A stretch of DNA of 64,000 nucleotides, from positions 73,191 through 137,190 of the forward strand of contig DHVR01000002.1 in assembly GCA_002412765.1 (NCBI GenBank). The letters are read 5' to 3'. Of the stretch, positions 31,092 through 55,490 are shown in pieces; the first letter of the stretch is position 1; every line of letters starts with the position of its first letter. Source of the DNA: Leptolinea sp. UBA5203. Its GTDB lineage: Bacteria; Chloroflexota; Anaerolineae; Anaerolineales; Anaerolineaceae. The notes beneath the pieces were generated by a model, which saw only the letters and a program-made list of their open reading frames with translations, had not been told where the DNA came from and searched no databases. Position numbers and translations under genes: made by a program.

Positions 31092-31119
31092 TTGACATCA
31101 CAGCAGGGACGGTTATAAT
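31092..31119 (+). promoter_or_regulatory. consensus sigma-70-type promoter for tRNA-Leu
   Basis: TTGACA (31092-31097), a 16-nt spacer and TATAAT (31114-31119) sit 14 nt upstream of the mature tRNA 5' end. Confidence 0.6.
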
Positions 31120-31132
31120 AATCACGTCCCAG

Positions 31133-31214
31133 GCGCTAGTGCTGGAATTGGCAGACAGGCATGGTTGAGGGCCATGTGCCGTAAGGCGTGGGGGTTCAAG
31201 TCCCCCCTAGCGCA
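31133..31214 (+). tRNA. tRNA-Leu (anticodon GAG), type II with a long variable arm; CCA not encoded
   Basis: Folded by hand. The acceptor stem is GCGCTAG/CTAGCGC, the anticodon stem CATGG/CCATG and the loop TTGAGGG. The variable arm is TGCCGTAAGGCGT, the T-arm GGGGG-TTCAAGT-CCCCC and the discriminator A. Confidence 0.9.
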
Positions 31215-31217
31215 CAC

Positions 31218-46925: not shown

Positions 46926-47285
46926 ATGGATCATGTAATTATTAAGAACTTAATGGTGCGGGGCGTGATTGGCATTTCGGATCACGAGCGGCGGGAACGA
47001 CAGGATATTGTCGTCAATGTGGACATGAGCGCAGATTTACAGGTAGCCGGCGAAAGTGACAATATTGAGGATTGTGTCAATTATCGCACGGTTTCCAAAG
47101 AGATCATCAAGCATGTGGAAACCCGCGGAAGGTTTACCGTTGAAGCCCTGGCAGCGGATATCGCTGCAATTTGCCTGGCGCATGACGCCGTACAAAAAGT
47201 AAAAGTGCGCATAGAGAAACCAGGCGCGGTGCGTTTTTCTGAATCCGTGGGTGTGGAAATTATCCGCAAAAAGGTGAGTGGATGA
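46926..47285 (+). CDS. folB: dihydroneopterin aldolase
   Basis: 119 aa. The pattern IKNLMVRGVIGISDHERRERQDIVVNVDM....DNIEDCVNYRTV is typical of FolB. ATG 46926 follows GGAG. Confidence 0.85.
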   Translation: MDHVIIKNLMVRGVIGISDHERRERQDIVVNVDMSADLQVAGESDNIEDCVNYRTVSKEIIKHVETRGRFTVEALAADIAAICLAHDAVQKVKVRIEKPGAVRFSESVGVEIIRKKVSG

Positions 47286-47761
47286 ATCATTCCGTGTATT
47301 TGATTCTCGGCAGCAACATTGAACCGGAAAAGAATACATTGCAGGCAATTCGGTTTTTATACAGGGTGTGCAACCTTGTAAAGGTATCATCTACTTGGGA
47401 AACCGTCGCAGTGGGAAGTGATGGCCCTAATTTCCTAAACACGGCTTTATGGATTGAAACCCCGCTTAACGCAGAAGAAATCAAAACTACGATCATTGCT
47501 GACCTGGAAAAACAGTTGGGCAGAATCCGTACCACGGATAAAAATGCACCCCGCACCATTGATCTGGACATTGTTATTTACGATCAGACTCTGCTGGAAC
47601 CTGCCTTATGGAAGAAAGCCTTTATTGCTATTCCCATGGCGGAATTAATCCCGGAGTACCCTCATCCTGACGGGAAAGGTACCTTGAAGGAGTTTATCCA
47701 TCAATTTGAGGGACAGAACCTGGCTTTTCTTTATCCTCTACCGATAGAAAAATTTTCCTGA
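47282..47761 (+). CDS. folK: 2-amino-4-hydroxy-6-hydroxymethyldihydropteridine pyrophosphokinase
   Basis: VYLILGSN and RTIDLDIV motifs are present in 159 aa. The start overlaps the folB stop by 4 nt. Confidence 0.9.
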   Translation: MNHSVYLILGSNIEPEKNTLQAIRFLYRVCNLVKVSSTWETVAVGSDGPNFLNTALWIETPLNAEEIKTTIIADLEKQLGRIRTTDKNAPRTIDLDIVIYDQTLLEPALWKKAFIAIPMAELIPEYPHPDGKGTLKEFIHQFEGQNLAFLYPLPIEKFS

Positions 47762-50036
47762 TTGGTTTGTCATTTTGCATCACGGAATAGCGTTTAAAAA
47801 GAGTTCGCTGCCTGGCAGGTTGTTCTGCGGCAGCGATTTTTTTTATCACCAGACGCAGCAGCATCTCTTCATCCATGCCAAAGGAAGTGAGAATGGTCGA
47901 GACGGCACGCAGCAGCAATTTAAGATAAATCTGCTGATCCGGCAGGGAAGGCGTGTGGGATAGGGGCATATCCCAGGCCTGAATGCGCGGGGGATGCTGC
48001 ATGAAGAGAAATTTTATCGTCTGCCCGGGACGGATGGTTTTACCGGCTGCCACCATCTGTGCGGCGGCTTTGGCTGCCGGAGAGGGGGAATGGTAGTCGT
48101 CCAGTTCGCGGCTGATTTTTTGCGTGACCAGCAGTTTTTCCAGCGAAATCCGGCCTCTTTTTAATTTTTGTACTTCCTGCTGCAAGTATTGAATAATTTT
48201 CGGCTGCAAGGATGGGAACTCCTCCAGGCTGGGCAGGGCAGCAATCTGCTCCAGCAGAGTTTGTTGAATTTCGGCAATCCAGAGCGGGGTATCCCGGCGG
48301 CGCAATTCAATGCCGCGCAATTTCAAACTACCGTCTTCAAAGACGCCAAAATAGCGGTTGGCCACCGGAATTTGATCATTGCCTTTGGAGGGCAGGAAAA
48401 CAATCCAGCGGAAAATGCCGTCTGCGGCGATGGGCAGTCCGGTCCGCTGTTGAATGGCTTCAAGCAGCGGTTGAAGGGTTTCCAGGGTGATGAGGGTCGG
48501 CGATTTAATCCACAAACCGTCGACGTACATATGCAGGATGGAGTAGCCCATTTCTTCTGCGGTCTCTTTGGCACGCATCAAAGACTCGCGTCCATAGGCC
48601 GTAACGGCCTCGTGAGCCTCGATACGGCCGAAACGGGCATTCTTGTACCCAAGATAGCCAAAACAGGTCACCAGCAGCCATTTATGGGCTGAGGACTGGG
48701 CTTTGTAAACCTCGTAGGCCGGGTCCCATTTTTCCAGGGTTGCCAGGGTTTGCTTAATTCGCACCCGTTTTTGCAGCAGGGGCGCCAGGGTGTTGGGGAT
48801 CAATCCCTGGGGTTTCTGATGTTGATCTTCAACAAAGTCTTTGCTGCCCGGGGTGCTGCTGAAGGTTTCCGGGGAGATGTTTTCGTGCACCATGATGCTG
48901 GGATACATCGAAATAAAATCAATCCCGGCCACGTTTTCGTGCACGCCTACCGTGGGCTGATAGACCAATCCGCCCAGATCGGTATGGATCAAATCCAAGG
49001 CGGTTTTGGTGTTTTCCGCCTGCTGTTTGTGCCAGGGGACCAGAACACCCTGTCGGAGGGCGGTGGTCATTTGCATGGCAGAGATGCCGCTGCCTGGGGA
49101 GACTCTGGCGACGGTCTGAATGGGCAAGCCGGTGACGCGTGCCAATTCCAGGATGCCATCCACCTGGTAATCATGAAAGAGGGTGGCGTTGTGAATGTCG
49201 ATGTGCCAGCGTCCAAAGAGGTGGATCTGTTGATCGCGGTAGATGGTTTGTCCGTAGGAGAAATACACCAGATCATTTTTGCGTAAAACGGTTTGACGCG
49301 TGTCGCGGTTCAGGGGCAGGAAAATATTATGGATGCGGCTTTGTTCCATCAGGTGCGGCATCAGCCAGCCGTCTCCCCAGGCGGTCAGAATCAAATCCGG
49401 GTCGTATTGCTGCAGCAGACTGCACAGGGTGATCAGCATGACGCGGACTGGATTGAGTTTGACTTTTCGTTGAATGCCGTTTTGATGCAGGATCAGACTG
49501 AGCGGTGTTTGATGGCGCGGGGACTGATCGGGCTCCATGGAGAGGATTTTGATGGGCGGCCGGGTGACTGAGAGTTCCCAGGGCGTTTCCAGCACGCTGA
49601 TCTGCTGCAAAGTATTCAGCTCGTCATGTTCGATGCTGCAATAGCAAAGGGGAAAGGTGTTATGCAGACTGGCGTGGCGCAGGGAGAGGGTCACATCCGC
49701 GTCAAAATAGTCCAGATCCGGAAATTTGGCGGAAAGCGCCTTGAAGACCTGCGGCTGCTGGGCGGGGGAACGCACCTCCACGGCCAGCACGGCGATGGGC
49801 TGGGGCTGGAAAATGTCCTGTCTCTCCGTGCGGTATAGCTTCAGTTCATAGGGCATGGCTTTCAGCATCTTCCAGGCTTCGCGCAATTGGCGGGTATCCC
49901 CGGCGGCATAGAAGGTGATCGGGAAGGGCTGAAACAGGCGCAGACGTTCCCCATCCTGGTCCAAAAACCACAGCGTAATGCCCGGTTTTTCCGGGTCGGG
50001 GTATAAGTCCATCAGCCAGCCGTTGCGCCTACTCAT
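47694..50036 (-). CDS. family-B DNA polymerase, divergent (exonuclease motif II and several polymerase motifs substituted)
   Basis: Motif A is IDFISMYPSI, motif B KWLLVTCFGYLGY and motif C HMYVDGLW. The NRY...RGIELRRRD region is present. The N-terminus is archaeal-PolB-like (WLMDLYPD...ITLWFLDQDGERL), and the Exo II region reads DPDLILTAWGDGWLMPHL. Confidence 0.85.
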   Translation of the reverse strand: MSRRNGWLMDLYPDPEKPGITLWFLDQDGERLRLFQPFPITFYAAGDTRQLREAWKMLKAMPYELKLYRTERQDIFQPQPIAVLAVEVRSPAQQPQVFKALSAKFPDLDYFDADVTLSLRHASLHNTFPLCYCSIEHDELNTLQQISVLETPWELSVTRPPIKILSMEPDQSPRHQTPLSLILHQNGIQRKVKLNPVRVMLITLCSLLQQYDPDLILTAWGDGWLMPHLMEQSRIHNIFLPLNRDTRQTVLRKNDLVYFSYGQTIYRDQQIHLFGRWHIDIHNATLFHDYQVDGILELARVTGLPIQTVARVSPGSGISAMQMTTALRQGVLVPWHKQQAENTKTALDLIHTDLGGLVYQPTVGVHENVAGIDFISMYPSIMVHENISPETFSSTPGSKDFVEDQHQKPQGLIPNTLAPLLQKRVRIKQTLATLEKWDPAYEVYKAQSSAHKWLLVTCFGYLGYKNARFGRIEAHEAVTAYGRESLMRAKETAEEMGYSILHMYVDGLWIKSPTLITLETLQPLLEAIQQRTGLPIAADGIFRWIVFLPSKGNDQIPVANRYFGVFEDGSLKLRGIELRRRDTPLWIAEIQQTLLEQIAALPSLEEFPSLQPKIIQYLQQEVQKLKRGRISLEKLLVTQKISRELDDYHSPSPAAKAAAQMVAAGKTIRPGQTIKFLFMQHPPRIQAWDMPLSHTPSLPDQQIYLKLLLRAVSTILTSFGMDEEMLLRLVIKKIAAAEQPARQRTLFKRYSVMQNDKPIRKIFLSVEDKEKPGSVPQIDG

Positions 50037-50286
50037 CGAGAACTTCGCTTAGGGCATCCTGAAGCTGGCAGACTTTTTTGTGTTCTTCCAGCAGCATGGC
50101 CAGTAGGAAGATTTCGAAGGGCAGTGCGTGGGTGGCATAAGCGGCGGCGGCGAGGTGCTTTTGTGCTTCGGCAAATAGATCATCCAAAATCAGTTGATCA
50201 CTTTTGCGCAGCGCGCGCCGGAATTTGGAGAAAGAACTCTGCTCGTGTAAAAATTGTTGAGTAATGGAAGGTAATGTGCGTCCCAT
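50029..50286 (-). CDS. 85-aa predicted all-helical protein, unknown function
   Basis: Its stop overlaps the PolB ATG (ATGAGTAG), and it starts 19 nt after the upstream gene. I recognise no motif. Confidence 0.5.
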   Translation of the reverse strand: MGRTLPSITQQFLHEQSSFSKFRRALRKSDQLILDDLFAEAQKHLAAAAYATHALPFEIFLLAMLLEEHKKVCQLQDALSEVLDE

Positions 50287-50305: not shown

Positions 50306-50842
50306 TTAAAAGAAACGATAATTTTCAGGCACCGGGGCCTGTTCCAATTGAAATACTTCATCCGTGTATTGACGCACGGCGGCGATCCAGCCCGCATAGT
50401 TCTCGTTTTTGGATACCCCGCAGCTAATGGCCACCGGCACATCCTGACTGAGGTGCTTCAGGCAATCCAGAGATTTCCTCAGCAGCCGTTCGCGCTCTTT
50501 GCTGGATGTGTGCTCGTCGTAAAACATATCCAGCAAGTCCAGCACCAGGATGGGCATGCGCGGATTATCCAGTGTTTCCAGGCGGGTGAGGACCTGGTAG
50601 CAGGTGAAGACCCGCGAAAGTTTGATGTTTTCCAGCAGGGGATTCACTTCTTCCGTGAGGCGACGGATTTCCCGGGCGATGGTGTAGGGACGAAAGGCAT
50701 TGCCGGCGTCGATAATAAAGAGTTCACCTTTCAGGGCTAATCTGGCGATCAACTGCGGCATGAGGTTGTGCAAATAGCTTCTGGGCGCATTGAGCAGCAG
50801 TAGTCTTTTCTCGGATAAGGAAGGGTATTGAATTTCATTCAT
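50306..50842 (-). CDS. RecA-fold (SulA/ImuA/RadA-paralogue-like) protein without a Walker A P-loop
   Basis: NIKLSRVFTCYQVLTRLETL......ILVLDLLDMFYDE matches the '..h.v.R.f...q....l..l......lvviDs....y..' strand pattern of RecA/RadA/KaiC cores. The expected GxxGxGKT position reads LNAPRSYLHNL. Confidence 0.5.
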   Translation of the reverse strand: MNEIQYPSLSEKRLLLLNAPRSYLHNLMPQLIARLALKGELFIIDAGNAFRPYTIAREIRRLTEEVNPLLENIKLSRVFTCYQVLTRLETLDNPRMPILVLDLLDMFYDEHTSSKERERLLRKSLDCLKHLSQDVPVAISCGVSKNENYAGWIAAVRQYTDEVFQLEQAPVPENYRFF

Positions 50843-50932
50843 AGGCTTATCCTATCTGCTTCTGTGCCAGGGCGGCTATCCCCCGCGTGGGGGATAAAAG
50901 CGGTTAAAAAGGATTACCCCTTTTTTGTCCGG

Positions 50933-51343
50933 TTAATATTGCCAGGCACTGAAATCCCATCCGGCCAGCTCCATGATTAGGGCCTGTTTTTTACACAGTC
51001 CAAATTTGCCGAGGATATTGCGTACGTGGGTCTTGACGGTCTCTGTCGCAATCCCCAGCTTGAGGGCGATCTCCTGATTACTGCAGCCCTTACAAACCCA
51101 AATGGCAACCTGCTGCTCCCGTACGGAGAGGTCCTGCCAGTGGATACTGTTGTATTGGATTTTCCTGCGTTCTTCAATGGCAAAGCGCAGCAGCCGCGCT
51201 GCCAGTTCACTGGGGGAACAATTTTCCTGACTTGCCAGGCTGATCAGGGTTTCATGCAGTTCCGGATCCAATTCAAGGGGCATGTCAGGTTGGATATTAA
51301 AAATAGTTTGGGTCATTGCAGCCAGATCTCTCATCTTTATCAC
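50933..51343 (-). CDS. small transcription regulator with a C-terminal LuxR/GerE HTH and a possible N-terminal ribbon-helix-helix
   Basis: The C-terminus (LSVREQQVAIWVCKGCSNQEIALKLGIATETVKTHVRNILGKFG) is a GerE HTH. The N-terminus (LELDPELHETLISLASQENCSPSELAARLLRFAIEE) looks CopG/RHH-like. The start is GTG 51343 or ATG 51334. Confidence 0.8.
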   Translation of the reverse strand: MIKMRDLAAMTQTIFNIQPDMPLELDPELHETLISLASQENCSPSELAARLLRFAIEERRKIQYNSIHWQDLSVREQQVAIWVCKGCSNQEIALKLGIATETVKTHVRNILGKFGLCKKQALIMELAGWDFSAWQY

Positions 51344-51362: not shown

Positions 51363-51391
51363 ATTATATAGAACAAATGTTCTTGTGTCAA
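51363..51391 (-). promoter_or_regulatory. consensus sigma-70-type promoter (TTGACA-17-TATAAT) of the LuxR-type gene / PolB cassette
   Basis: Read on the minus strand, the -35 TTGACA is 51391-51386 and the -10 TATAAT is 51368-51363. The spacer is 17 nt (CAAGAACATTTGTTCTA). Confidence 0.6.
51370..51383. promoter_or_regulatory. candidate LexA (SOS/Cheo-type) operator
   Basis: AGAACAAATGTTCT is a perfect 14-nt palindrome of the form GAAC-N4-GTTC. It lies entirely within the promoter spacer. Confidence 0.6.
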
Positions 51392-51535: not shown

Positions 51536-53152
51536 ATGTCCGCAAAACCCTTAAAAATATTTGTGTTTGTATTCCTTCCATTGTTGAGCCTGCTTGTTGT
51601 CAACCAGGTAACGCAGAACAGCATTGCCTTTATTCGCACCATTCTGGCTGCGGCGCCTATTCTGATCGTCCTCGTGGTGATGATTGTCTTTCATGTTGGC
51701 GGACAGGTTGCCGGTCTGATTGGCCTGCTCAGCGGATTGCTGGTTGCATTTCAAGCTTTTGGCCTGACCAGCAATATCTTGATTATTTCCCAGGTAAAAG
51801 GGCTGCTGCTTTTTTTGTTTGTTCTGGCAGTTTTTTTGCCGGCTTTATTTCTATATAACATTGTTAATCAAGCCAGGGGTATTCAATCCATTGCTCTGGC
51901 TCTGGAAAACAGGATTCAGGATCGAGGCATCTTGCTGATTGTCATTGCCTGGGCTTTCAGCGGGATGTTGGAAGGTCTGGCGGGTTTTGGGCTACCCGTG
52001 GCCATGGTTTCCCCAATGTTGGTTGAATTGGGATTGAATCCCATTCTGGCCGTTGCGGCTGTTGCCATTGGGCACGCCTGGTCGGTTACCTTTGGCGATA
52101 TGGGCGTGATTTACCAAACGCTCATCTCAGTGGTAAAGGTTGCTCCGGCGCAATTATCCGTATTTGCGGCCATCTTCCTGGGGATTTCCTGTCTGGCTTG
52201 TGGATTGTCGGTGGCGCACATATTAAAGCGCTTGAACAAATGGCCCATTGTGCTGGTCCTTGCTCTGGTCATGGCCTTCGTGCAGTATGCTTTTGTGATG
52301 CTGAACATTGCTGCCCTGGCGAGTTTTTGTGCCGGGTTGGCGGGTGTAAGTGCTGCAATACTGATCAATCACATCATTATGAAATCTAAAAATGAAAAAA
52401 GCGCCCCCATGGAATGGACGCCGTCCTTGAAAATGGCCCTCTTGAGTTATGGCTCCCTGACCGTTCTGATGAGTCTGATTGCTATTGTCCCGCCTCTTCA
52501 TCAGGCTTTGGGAAAAATATCCTGGGTTGTGGCCTACCCCGAAGTGACCACCTTGCGTGGCTTTACTACGGCGGCGGTGATTAATCAACACTATTATCCT
52601 TTACTGCATCCGGGGACATCCATCTTGTTGATTGCTTTGATCAGTTATTTTCTGAATAAACGGGCGAAACTTTATTCGTCAACGAATCTCATGCATATTG
52701 TTTCCATCACTGTGAAAGCAGCTTTGCCGCCAGCGATTGGAATTCTCTCCATGGTGGGGCTTTCGTTTCTCATGGATCACAGTGGTATGACGGTTCAACT
52801 GGCTGAATTGTTAAGTAGTTTTTTTAATGCAGCCTTCCCGTTAGTTTCACCTTACATCGGCATGTTGGGCGCCTTTGCTACCGGAAGTAATAATAATTCC
52901 AATGTTTTGTTTGCTCCCCTGCAAGAGGGGATCGCGATCCTTCTGAAAATCTCGCCTGCGGTGATTGTGGCTGCCCAAACGACGGGCGGTGCATTAGGCA
53001 GCATGATAGCCCCAGCCAAAGTGATTGTGGGCTGCAGCACAGTGGCAGCCCAGGGTCGGGATGGAGAAGTTCTGCGCAAGACCATTCCCTATGGCCTGGT
53101 CATCGGGCTGGTGATGGGAATTGTGACCATGCTATTTGCAATGAATAATTGA
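51536..53152 (+). CDS. L-lactate permease (LctP) family transporter
   Basis: 538 aa and polytopic. LctP-like segments are present (GHAWSVTFGDMG, GAFATGSNNNSNVLFAPLQ, AAQTTGGALGSMIAPAK). ATG 51536 follows GGAGGA. Confidence 0.75.
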   Translation: MSAKPLKIFVFVFLPLLSLLVVNQVTQNSIAFIRTILAAAPILIVLVVMIVFHVGGQVAGLIGLLSGLLVAFQAFGLTSNILIISQVKGLLLFLFVLAVFLPALFLYNIVNQARGIQSIALALENRIQDRGILLIVIAWAFSGMLEGLAGFGLPVAMVSPMLVELGLNPILAVAAVAIGHAWSVTFGDMGVIYQTLISVVKVAPAQLSVFAAIFLGISCLACGLSVAHILKRLNKWPIVLVLALVMAFVQYAFVMLNIAALASFCAGLAGVSAAILINHIIMKSKNEKSAPMEWTPSLKMALLSYGSLTVLMSLIAIVPPLHQALGKISWVVAYPEVTTLRGFTTAAVINQHYYPLLHPGTSILLIALISYFLNKRAKLYSSTNLMHIVSITVKAALPPAIGILSMVGLSFLMDHSGMTVQLAELLSSFFNAAFPLVSPYIGMLGAFATGSNNNSNVLFAPLQEGIAILLKISPAVIVAAQTTGGALGSMIAPAKVIVGCSTVAAQGRDGEVLRKTIPYGLVIGLVMGIVTMLFAMNN

Positions 53153-53230: not shown

Positions 53231-54283
53231 CTAAGCCCTTGCCGTTTGAGCCAGCACAACCCATGGGTAGATTTCCAGTGCATGGATTTTAATTTTGGAA
53301 TTGGAGGTGGTGATTTGCAGCAATCCATTGTCAAGCAGAAGTGGAGTTTCCATACAGTCGGCACCCAGTGAAGTGAGGCGTTTTGCCAGGTCCAATAGAA
53401 AGTGATGGCTGGGCTCTAAAGAAGTAGTTAGAAAAAGGAGCTGTTGGGCGCCATTGAGCCCGGCCATGCCGCTGCCGATTTGCTTGAGCAGATGGTTTTG
53501 CAGCCTTTCCCGGCTTATCTGATGTTCTTTCGGCATAGTGTTTTGAATCAATGTGTCCAGCCGCATCAGTTGGGGATCCAGCGCCTGAAAACCGCTTTGC
53601 AGGGTCAGCACCTGCAGGGCTTGATCCACACTCATGCCGTCCTCGCACAGCAATAAAGACAGGGATGGATCGATGCTGCCTACGCTAGTCAGGCCAGGGA
53701 TGCCCTCCAATTTGGAGAATCCGCTGGAGCACTCCACAGCAATTCCGCGCTGGATGACGGCTACGGATGCGGAAAACTCATCCAGGAAGACCGTGATCAA
53801 GCGATCACTCTGATCAGGATAAGCTGCTCTGATGAGCCGAGAGCCGTATTGATGATAGATTCCATCCGACCCGTAGCGTTGAATCTCAGGATAGCGAAGT
53901 TCCTTTGGGAGCGCATAGCCATGGGCGGTTTGCGGCATATGCTGGAAAAAAGCTGTGTTGCAAAGCAGGATATGGCGCAGCTCTGGCCGCATGGTAACCA
54001 TCTGAAAGACGGTATTCATTAGCAAGGTGTTTTCAAAAGGGGCAAACTTCTGCATGTCCTGTAAAAGACTTAGCATGCCCGGGGTCAATTCTGTAACGGC
54101 TTCGTTGAACTCAGGTCCGCCATTTTCAAGTAAATAGACGGCTTCTTCGGCTTCTTCCACAGCATCCATCAGCTCGGCAGGAAAGGGCTGCTCTGGTAAA
54201 AGTTTCCCGCAGCGGATCAAGTAGTCCTGATCATTCAGTTCTGCCCAATCCATGTGGTAAGGCGTGGTTTTAAAGATCAGCAT
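53231..54283 (-). CDS. degenerate acetate/propionate-kinase-family (ASKHA) paralogue
   Basis: It aligns by eye with the acetate-kinase core. RYGSDGIYH matches YGFHGTSH, GLTSVGSIDP matches GTRSGDIDP, and SKIKIHALEIYPWVVLAQTA matches SKVKVLVIPTNEELMIARDT. It lacks the N-terminal NxGSSS motif. The start overlaps the upstream gene by 14 nt. Confidence 0.6.
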   Translation of the reverse strand: MLIFKTTPYHMDWAELNDQDYLIRCGKLLPEQPFPAELMDAVEEAEEAVYLLENGGPEFNEAVTELTPGMLSLLQDMQKFAPFENTLLMNTVFQMVTMRPELRHILLCNTAFFQHMPQTAHGYALPKELRYPEIQRYGSDGIYHQYGSRLIRAAYPDQSDRLITVFLDEFSASVAVIQRGIAVECSSGFSKLEGIPGLTSVGSIDPSLSLLLCEDGMSVDQALQVLTLQSGFQALDPQLMRLDTLIQNTMPKEHQISRERLQNHLLKQIGSGMAGLNGAQQLLFLTTSLEPSHHFLLDLAKRLTSLGADCMETPLLLDNGLLQITTSNSKIKIHALEIYPWVVLAQTARA

Positions 54284-55490
54284 GCTTCACCTCCTGGAGT
54301 AAATTGAAACCATCCCGGGCGATGATGCTTTCTTCGTCTGTTGGCAGAACCATTACGCGTACCGCTGATTTGGCGGTTTGAATTTCTGAAAGACAATCCA
54401 GCGGGGCAGTCCGGTTTTTTTGTTCATCCAGTTCAAGCCCCAGCCAATCCATCTTGGCACAGGTTAAGTGACGAATGGCGGGGTTTTGAAGTCCAATATC
54501 ATCGGTAAAGACCAGGATATCCAGCCCCCCCAGAATGGCTGCGTAGGCGCCGATATATTTTTTCAGGCGGTGAATCAACAGGTCAATGGCAGCCTGTGCT
54601 TCTGGATTATGCTGTTCATCCGCTGATTTGAGGATATCGCGGATATCACTGGAAAAACCGGATAGACCCAGCAAACCGCTATTTTTATTAAAGATTTGAT
54701 TTAGCTCGCTGGCGGTATGGTTATGCACCTGCATCAGGTAGAGGGGGATAAATGGATCCAGGTCCCCGCAGCGGGTGCTCATCACCAGACCTTGCAGAGG
54801 TGTATAACCCATGGAAGTATCCACTGGTTTACCATTCTTGATGGCAGTGATGCTGGAGCCACCGGTGCCCAGATGGCAGGCAATGATCTTCAGCGGGGCT
54901 AGATCCAAATTCAGCGTTTGGCTGATGTGTTGAAAGATATAAGTGTATGAGAGGCCGTGAAAGCCGTAATGGCGGATGTCATGCTGTTTTGTAAATGCAT
55001 TGGGCAGGGTCTCTAAGGCGGCAATATCCGGCATCTGGCTGTAAAAGGTGGTATCGAAGGTGACATATTCGGGCAAGCCGGGGTAGGACTGCTGGCAGGC
55101 ACGAATTACACTGTAAGAATTGGGGTTATGAATGGGAGCCAAAGGCAGACATCGTTCCAGCGCGGGAGTAGTTAGGGGAGTGATCAGAGTGGAGCTAGTA
55201 AACAAAGAACCGCCATGCACAAAACGATGGCCGATAGCATCAAACTGGATATCCAGCTTTTGCAGCATTTGGATGATTTGTCCGGCGGCCTGGGCATGGC
55301 TGTCAAGCTGCATGGGGACAACGGTATGCTGCCCATCCTGATTTAGCTCAATAAAGGACTCTTCTGTGCCTTTCACACCTACTCGATGGGCTTTCCCGTG
55401 CAGCAGGATTTTCGGGGTTAAAGAAGAGTCGACAGAAAAAAGTTTAAACGATAGAGAAGAAGAACCACAATTAAAGATGAGAAGTTTCAT
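54270..55490 (-). CDS. acetate-kinase-family protein (atypical active site)
   Basis: It has LIFNCGSSSLSF, GHRFVHGG, APIHNP, FDTTF, YGFHGLSY and STRCGD. However, HLGTGG replaces HLGNG and DDIGLQN replaces AGIGEN. Confidence 0.8.
   Translation of the reverse strand: MKLLIFNCGSSSLSFKLFSVDSSLTPKILLHGKAHRVGVKGTEESFIELNQDGQHTVVPMQLDSHAQAAGQIIQMLQKLDIQFDAIGHRFVHGGSLFTSSTLITPLTTPALERCLPLAPIHNPNSYSVIRACQQSYPGLPEYVTFDTTFYSQMPDIAALETLPNAFTKQHDIRHYGFHGLSYTYIFQHISQTLNLDLAPLKIIACHLGTGGSSITAIKNGKPVDTSMGYTPLQGLVMSTRCGDLDPFIPLYLMQVHNHTASELNQIFNKNSGLLGLSGFSSDIRDILKSADEQHNPEAQAAIDLLIHRLKKYIGAYAAILGGLDILVFTDDIGLQNPAIRHLTCAKMDWLGLELDEQKNRTAPLDCLSEIQTAKSAVRVMVLPTDEESIIARDGFNLLQEVKHADL

Follow-up and report, generated by a model that had tools for sequence, protein, structure and literature searches.

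What reads a palindrome set into the spacer of a consensus promoter, and which genes does such a promoter serve? This question is raised by a 64-kb stretch of DNA (64,000 nucleotides, hereafter the window), the minus strand of which reads TTGACA-CAAGAACATTTGTTCTA-TATAAT from position 51391 to 51363. The −35 hexamer TTGACA (51386–51391, minus strand) and the −10 hexamer TATAAT (51363–51368, minus strand) of this promoter, termed P1, are both exact at 17-nt spacing, as the original prediction had stated, and a promoter scan of the window returned them with a consensus score of 12/12 and a spacer of 17 nt. Perfect promoters of the form TTGACA-N16–18-TATAAT are rare, with two in the window against 0.01 expected, so P1 is built like a very strong promoter. 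Transcription is predicted to start at an A 7 nt past the −10 hexamer (51356, minus strand), which leaves a leader of 22 nt, and a Shine-Dalgarno sequence (GGTGA) is located 5 nt ahead of the ATG at 51334. Only a single metatranscriptome run was found to cover this part of the window, and it contains 7% of the words sampled. No Rfam family was found in the promoter, in the intergenic region, or anywhere in the window. The other perfect promoter (TTGACA-N16-TATAAT, 31092–31119, plus strand) drives a gene for tRNA-Leu(GAG) (31133–31215, plus strand), which is followed by a stem-loop with a T-run. This promoter is an ordinary one and illustrates the use of consensus promoters in this genome.

The spacer of P1 holds the inverted repeat AGAAC-N4-GTTCT (51370–51383, no strand assigned), a predicted LexA operator that covers positions −27 to −14 or thereabouts, counted from the predicted start of P1, and is conserved across orthologous loci. 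Its core, GAAC-N4-GTTC (51371–51382), is perfect and extended to AGAAC...GTTCT. The site had been described as a 14-nt palindrome within the spacer; its position holds, but perfect symmetry is confined to the AGAAC and GTTCT arms, the central AAAT not being self-complementary. The accompanying statement that no second GAAC-N4-GTTC exists proved correct, this being the sole perfect site in the 64-kb window. Taken alone, however, the 12-mer is not significant: 0.72 copies per window are expected by chance, and 55 of 100 shuffles contained at least one. Relaxed versions of the site (up to two mismatches) occur in the window at chance level, 24 times against 22 expected.

P1 is followed by four co-oriented, tightly spaced genes for a GerE-type regulator, iRadA, PPB2, and PolB2. 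The first gene (50933–51334, minus strand, with an alternative GTG start at 51343) encodes a LuxR/GerE-type regulator of 133 amino acids (Pfam GerE, E = 7e-15) with the LuxR/GerE-type HTH at the C terminus and, according to the alignment, a conserved GWDFSAW tail. The AlphaFold (AF2) model of the regulator has a pLDDT of 85.6, and a fold search aligned it with the DNA-binding domains of NarL, LiaR, and VraR at an rmsd of 0.6–0.8 Å. The strand-helix-helix pattern of the N-terminal 60 residues suggests a ribbon-helix-helix (RHH) domain; the fold search matched the C-terminal HTH alone and did not recover this N-terminal RHH domain.

The second gene (50306–50842, minus strand) encodes iRadA, a RadA/Rad51-like protein of 178 amino acids with weak matches to Pfam Rad51 and NCBIfam RadA/Dmc1. 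A Walker A (P-loop) motif, GxxxxGK[ST], is absent from the 178-residue sequence, and iRadA, which is conserved in orthologous loci, is by its sequence features an inactive RadA-like protein. After a gap of 19 nt follows the gene for PPB2 (50029–50286, minus strand, 85 amino acids). This protein belongs to no Pfam family; its size and position match PPB2/arCOG07300 (PMC11791011, PMC4104785). Across loci, PPB2 is 64–98% identical and is always positioned between iRadA and PolB.

The last gene (47694–50036, minus strand), the start of which overlaps the PPB2 stop by 8 nt, encodes a PolB2-type family-B DNA polymerase of 780 amino acids (Pfam DNA_pol_B; NCBIfam archaeal-type PolB) that is closest to archaeal enzymes by NCBIfam and alignment. 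Motif C of this polymerase is HMYVDGLWI; the YGDTDS of archaeal PolB aligns with HMYVDG, so that DTD is changed to YVD. In the exonuclease domain, SMEPD stands opposite the Exo I motif FDIE in a low-scoring part of the alignment; acidic residues are present there but displaced. No exact-protein record was found for the window PolB. Its closest relatives come from uncultured Anaerolineales/Chloroflexota (the best being 96% identical), and the window DNA is present in hydrocarbon and sediment metagenomes.

Several features of the neighborhood may be noted in passing. The 3′ end of polB2 overlaps that of the convergent folK gene (HPPK, 47282–47761, plus strand) by 68 nt (47694–47761), and no terminator lies between the two genes. 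On the other side, an L-lactate permease gene (51536–53152, plus strand) is divergent from P1 and starts 152 nt from the box. Further along are two tandem genes of the acetate kinase family (53231–54283 and 54270–55490, minus strand), one of them full-length (406 amino acids) and the other truncated or divergent (350 amino acids).

By their sequences, the three genes after the regulator are identifiable as the bacterial PolB2 “mutasome” operon iRadA-PPB2-PolB2, type 1a, which was described in bacteria by Timinskas et al. 2025 (PMC11791011) and earlier by Makarova et al. 2014 (PMC4104785). A complex of iRadA, PPB2, and PolB2 with translesion activity is a prediction of the former study (PMC11791011), and the Anaerolineae PolB2 entries in its supplement also show “YVD.” Both studies found lexA enriched beside bacterial polB2 operons (PMC11791011; PMC4104785), and it is from this enrichment in the operon neighborhoods that the link to DNA damage was drawn (PMC11791011). 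GerE also appears there as a frequent neighbor of polB2 (131 cases, Table S1), without discussion (PMC11791011).

For comparison, we used 80 genome loci with PolB relatives, mostly ∼50% identical, 73 of which had enough upstream sequence to be evaluated. A box was counted where GAAC-N4-GTTC, with no mismatch or a single one, occurs in the 200 nt ahead of the gene that opens the cassette. Nearly all 80 loci have conserved iRadA-PPB2-PolB, and about half have the GerE gene. The box was found in 57 of the 73 evaluable loci, 45 times in perfect form. It precedes every cassette in which the GerE gene comes first (34/34; 28 perfect and 6 with one mismatch), 18 of the 32 that start with iRadA (14 perfect, 4 with one mismatch), 4 of the 5 that start with polB (3 perfect, 1 with one mismatch), and 1 of the 2 that start with PPB2 (none perfect, 1 with one mismatch). 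Among random 210-nt windows drawn from these loci, 0.18% have a perfect box and 6.3% have one with a single mismatch. Perfect GAAC-N4-GTTC occurs at 59 sites in ∼980 kb, and roughly 50 of these are located at cassette promoters. Dozens of orthologous loci thus share the box at one and the same place in the promoter, where the background would be 0.18%, which shows that the feature is real.

When the loci are aligned on the box (55 boxes), TTGAC, which is kept in most of them, lies 3–4 nt upstream and TAnAAT lies 1–3 nt downstream, whereas the central four bases vary. This is the pattern of conservation that an operator inside a promoter would be expected to leave. As the box is missing from 14 of the 32 cassettes that start with iRadA, LexA control in cis would not be universal for the cassette. 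As a separate observation, the ATG of the first gene lies only 6–10 nt past the P1 −10 hexamer in many orthologous loci, before the GerE gene or iRadA (L040, L047, L052, L057, L061, L071, L073, and others), and leaderless transcripts are predicted for these.

Which factor, then, would recognize the box? The LexA protein of Dehalococcoides ethenogenes, a member of the Chloroflexi, reportedly binds AGAAC-N4-GTTCT. More widely, GAAC-N4-GTTC is the LexA motif of Bacillus subtilis and Mycobacterium tuberculosis and is established in Firmicutes and Actinobacteria (PMC3323433). In the literature, we found no experimentally studied SOS system from Anaerolineae, and searches with tblastn and phmmer detected neither lexA nor recA in the window or the 80 loci. 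Metagenome contigs were scanned with the 16-mer TAGAACAWATGTTCTR, and two LexA proteins found in this way provided a profile for relatives. The scan yielded 120 sites, mostly intergenic. Four PolB2 cassettes have the 16-mer immediately ahead of them, as do three genes for LexA, two for RecA, and two for Y-family polymerases.

From Anaerolineae-like LexA genes, seven distinct promoters were obtained. Each of the seven carries the box in one or two copies, and three of them (L204, L209, and L211) read TTGACA-n-AGAAC-N4-GTTnn-nn-TATAAT, the layout of the window. With the box at lexA too, LexA would be autoregulated. The LexA sequences retain the Ala-Gly cleavage site and the Ser/Lys dyad as well as the DNA-binding and S24 peptidase domains, and “Anaerolineae bacterium” is the sole taxonomic label among these relatives. 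The assignment of the box to LexA is thus supported at the level of class relatives.

Other genes also appear to belong to the SOS regulon of the class. One contig with a cassette (L077) contains a second box-bearing promoter, which precedes a small ORF and genes for a radical-SAM/HhH protein and DUF6504 (L077:614–2405), and this second putatively box-controlled operon fits a global regulator. In three of the seven lexA loci (L206:3661–5404, L208:2163–3621, and L210:2199–3663), the gene directly downstream of lexA encodes an FtsK/SpoIIIE-like ATPase, and small ORFs come after it; one of the small ORFs in L206 has a faint DUF6504 match. Both the operon in L077 and the ATPase genes downstream of lexA are apparent further members of this regulon.

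We consider it very probable that the palindrome is an SOS box, a LexA operator of Gram-positive/Chloroflexi type, which would place P1 and, by read-through, iRadA-PPB2-PolB2 under damage-inducible control. A LexA/SOS operator between −35 and −10 had been proposed for this site, and the comparison supports the proposal through the box-in-spacer arrangement that is conserved across the Anaerolineae cassettes. Further support is provided by the box in the seven lexA promoters and, in metagenomes, ahead of genes for RecA, LexA, and Y-family polymerases, and by the nature of the operon, a translesion-polymerase operon whose bacterial versions neighbor lexA (PMC11791011, PMC4104785).

Three other readings of the palindrome were weighed, and all of them rank far below LexA. 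A global regulator other than LexA might read AGAAC-N4-GTTCT, and a different repressor would then control this damage or stress regulon. Bacteria do have damage regulators that are not LexA (WYL-domain regulators, DriD), and LexA has been assigned to the box by sequence comparison. However, a box before lexA in seven of seven cases is a hallmark of LexA autoregulation, and the LexA proteins concerned keep both their DNA-binding and S24 peptidase domains, which makes a different repressor very improbable.

The palindrome could also be the autoregulatory operator of the downstream LuxR/GerE-type regulator (possibly RHH plus HTH), with no part played by LexA. LuxR-type dimers bind inverted repeats, the first gene past P1 encodes a DNA-binding protein according to Pfam and the structure model, and the box is present in all 34 GerE-first loci. 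Yet 22 loci in which no GerE gene is adjacent (18 iRadA-first and 4 polB-first) show the same geometry. The box thus goes with the cassette irrespective of which gene comes first and is not just an operator for the GerE-type protein. In addition, the box occurs at lexA and recA promoters and before unrelated repair genes, and it is the established Gram-positive LexA motif (PMC3323433). Autoregulation by GerE was therefore rejected on co-occurrence, as the site is not confined to the regulator gene, and we regard it as very improbable. Lastly, the palindrome might have arisen by chance in an AT-rich promoter spacer, P1 being constitutive and the site having no regulatory role. This would agree with the expectation of about one GAAC-N4-GTTC per 64 kb (0.72, from the shuffles) but is effectively refuted by the conservation of the arms, which persist across more than 50 loci with PolB ∼50% identical although the flanks and the four central bases vary, and its probability is close to nil.

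If LexA is the factor that reads the box, P1 would probably operate as follows. In undamaged cells, a LexA dimer on about −27 to −14 would block RNA polymerase and keep silent a promoter otherwise as strong as the tRNA promoter of the window. Upon DNA damage, RecA on single-stranded DNA would induce the self-cleavage of LexA, and P1 would fire. The small LuxR/GerE-type regulator gene would be transcribed first, and the transcript would continue into iRadA-PPB2-PolB2, which corresponds in bacteria to the PolB2 translesion “mutasome” of archaea. We infer LexA binding, repression, damage induction, and read-through, the last of these from the lack of a terminator in the 90-nt gap between the GerE and iRadA genes of the window.

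This gap (50843–50932, minus strand) is itself conserved. When anchored on the iRadA ATG, 42 loci align gap-free with the consensus ...cccCc...gg.t...Ccc.....tcccCc.......CcCCC...GgGGgATtgt.ttt...G.TAt.cTg.ggGCATG. In most loci, TAnnnT is found exactly 6 nt ahead of the iRadA ATG. From the recurrence of TAnnnT-N6-ATG, we predict a leaderless transcript from an internal promoter, P2, with TAGGAT (50849–50854, minus strand; 6 nt before the iRadA ATG) as its −10-like hexamer in the window.

The conserved element also includes an inverted repeat, which in the window is TATCCCCC-acgc-GGGGGATA (50877–50896, minus strand). In its general form, CCCCC-N3–5-GGGGGATTGT, the repeat ends ∼23 nt upstream of the −10-like hexamer and has its center near −43. 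It is preceded by C-tracts and often by GGTTAACC (loci L003–L078, upstream of iRadA). The strength of the repeat stem is uneven across loci, whereas GGGATTGT is well conserved. No Rfam match was found for the P2 element.

The inverted repeat before iRadA can be read as an RNA terminator hairpin. In many other loci, it has a GC stem with symmetric substitutions and a T-run and is thus terminator-like; in the window, no T-run follows the repeat, and no terminator was called in the gap. It can also be read as an activator site centered near −43, for which the co-located LuxR-type regulator is the obvious candidate. That the region before iRadA behaves as a promoter is suggested by lineages with a LexA or LexA-like box in exactly the spacer of P2 (L035, L068, L077, and L079; degenerate in L058, L060, and L070). 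Moreover, iRadA is preceded by the P2 element in each of the 14 loci lacking both a box and an adjacent GerE gene, so that none of the iRadA operons examined is without a LexA box or the P2 element directly upstream.

Small LuxR/GerE-type regulators recur as putatively SOS-box-controlled genes. A standalone RHH-GerE gene with the identical TTGACA-box-TATAAT promoter is found in L158 (L158:171–820), and a second, different GerE family is located behind the same box in two further loci (L096:865–1296 and L098:28–468).

Besides direct control by the SOS box, a two-step cascade can be envisaged, in which LexA would release the RHH/LuxR-type regulator, and the regulator would then act on the element at the −35-less P2 to turn on iRadA-PPB2-PolB2. 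We put this forward tentatively, as a possibility that is more doubtful than not. It fits the finding that iRadA operons have a LexA box or a P2 element, with an adjacent GerE gene always under a LexA box (34/34). It also fits the presence of the P2 element in the 14 loci without GerE gene or box nearby, together with the standalone, putatively SOS-box-controlled regulator in L158. Such a cascade, if true, would provide a delay or a threshold gate for mutagenesis.

An SOS box is the expected kind of control for a translesion-polymerase operon. We found no earlier report of one for the PolB2 operon in the open-access literature, and support for an SOS link had so far come from nearby lexA genes in other phyla. 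The conserved box is, to our knowledge, the first cis-regulatory evidence that a horizontally acquired archaeal PolB2 mutasome may be wired into the bacterial SOS response, here in the Anaerolineae. With TAGAAC-N4-GTTCTR located between −35 and −10, it also supplies an SOS-box model that can be used in a large class, most of which is uncultured. The conserved, unstudied small regulator and the internal promoter element may together gate the expression of an error-prone polymerase, and they are the part of the system most worth experiment. We know of genetics for the PolB2 of Sulfolobus only. Direct tests are possible, as cultured relatives carry the operon, namely Brevefilum, Pelolinea, Longilinea, and Ornatilinea (PMC11791011).

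Compared with known systems, the operon of the window agrees with the one described previously (PMC11791011, PMC4104785) in gene order, protein sizes, the YVD variant, a RadA-like protein without Walker A, and an Anaerolineae host. In contrast to these studies, which contain no promoter or operator analysis, a predicted operator within the promoter is described here. The box resembles the Gram-positive SOS or Cheo box (CGAAC-N4-GTTCG), as bound by LexA/DinR of B. subtilis and LexA of M. tuberculosis, in its GAAC-N4-GTTC core, in its overlap with the core promoter, and in the presence of the site at lexA itself. Its flanks are (T)A...T(A/G) instead of C...G, and its binding by LexA is predicted. 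The repeat before iRadA recalls the sites of LuxR-type activators near −42 (lux box) in that its center lies near −43 and a LuxR-type HTH gene is adjacent, a likeness that is purely positional, the repeat being equally readable as a terminator hairpin.

With regard to function, polB (dinA), umuDC, and imuA-imuB-dnaE2 are LexA-controlled translesion polymerase systems. The operon studied here appears comparable with Escherichia coli polB (dinA) and umuDC and with the LexA-regulated imuA-imuB-dnaE2, as each combines a non-essential translesion polymerase and a RecA-family accessory protein with a LexA operator (PMC12926913). However, the polymerase in the Anaerolineae operon is an archaeal PolB2 in origin and not Pol II, Pol V, or DnaE2. 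A further difference from all three systems is that a transcription factor gene comes first and that a second, internal promoter is predicted behind it.
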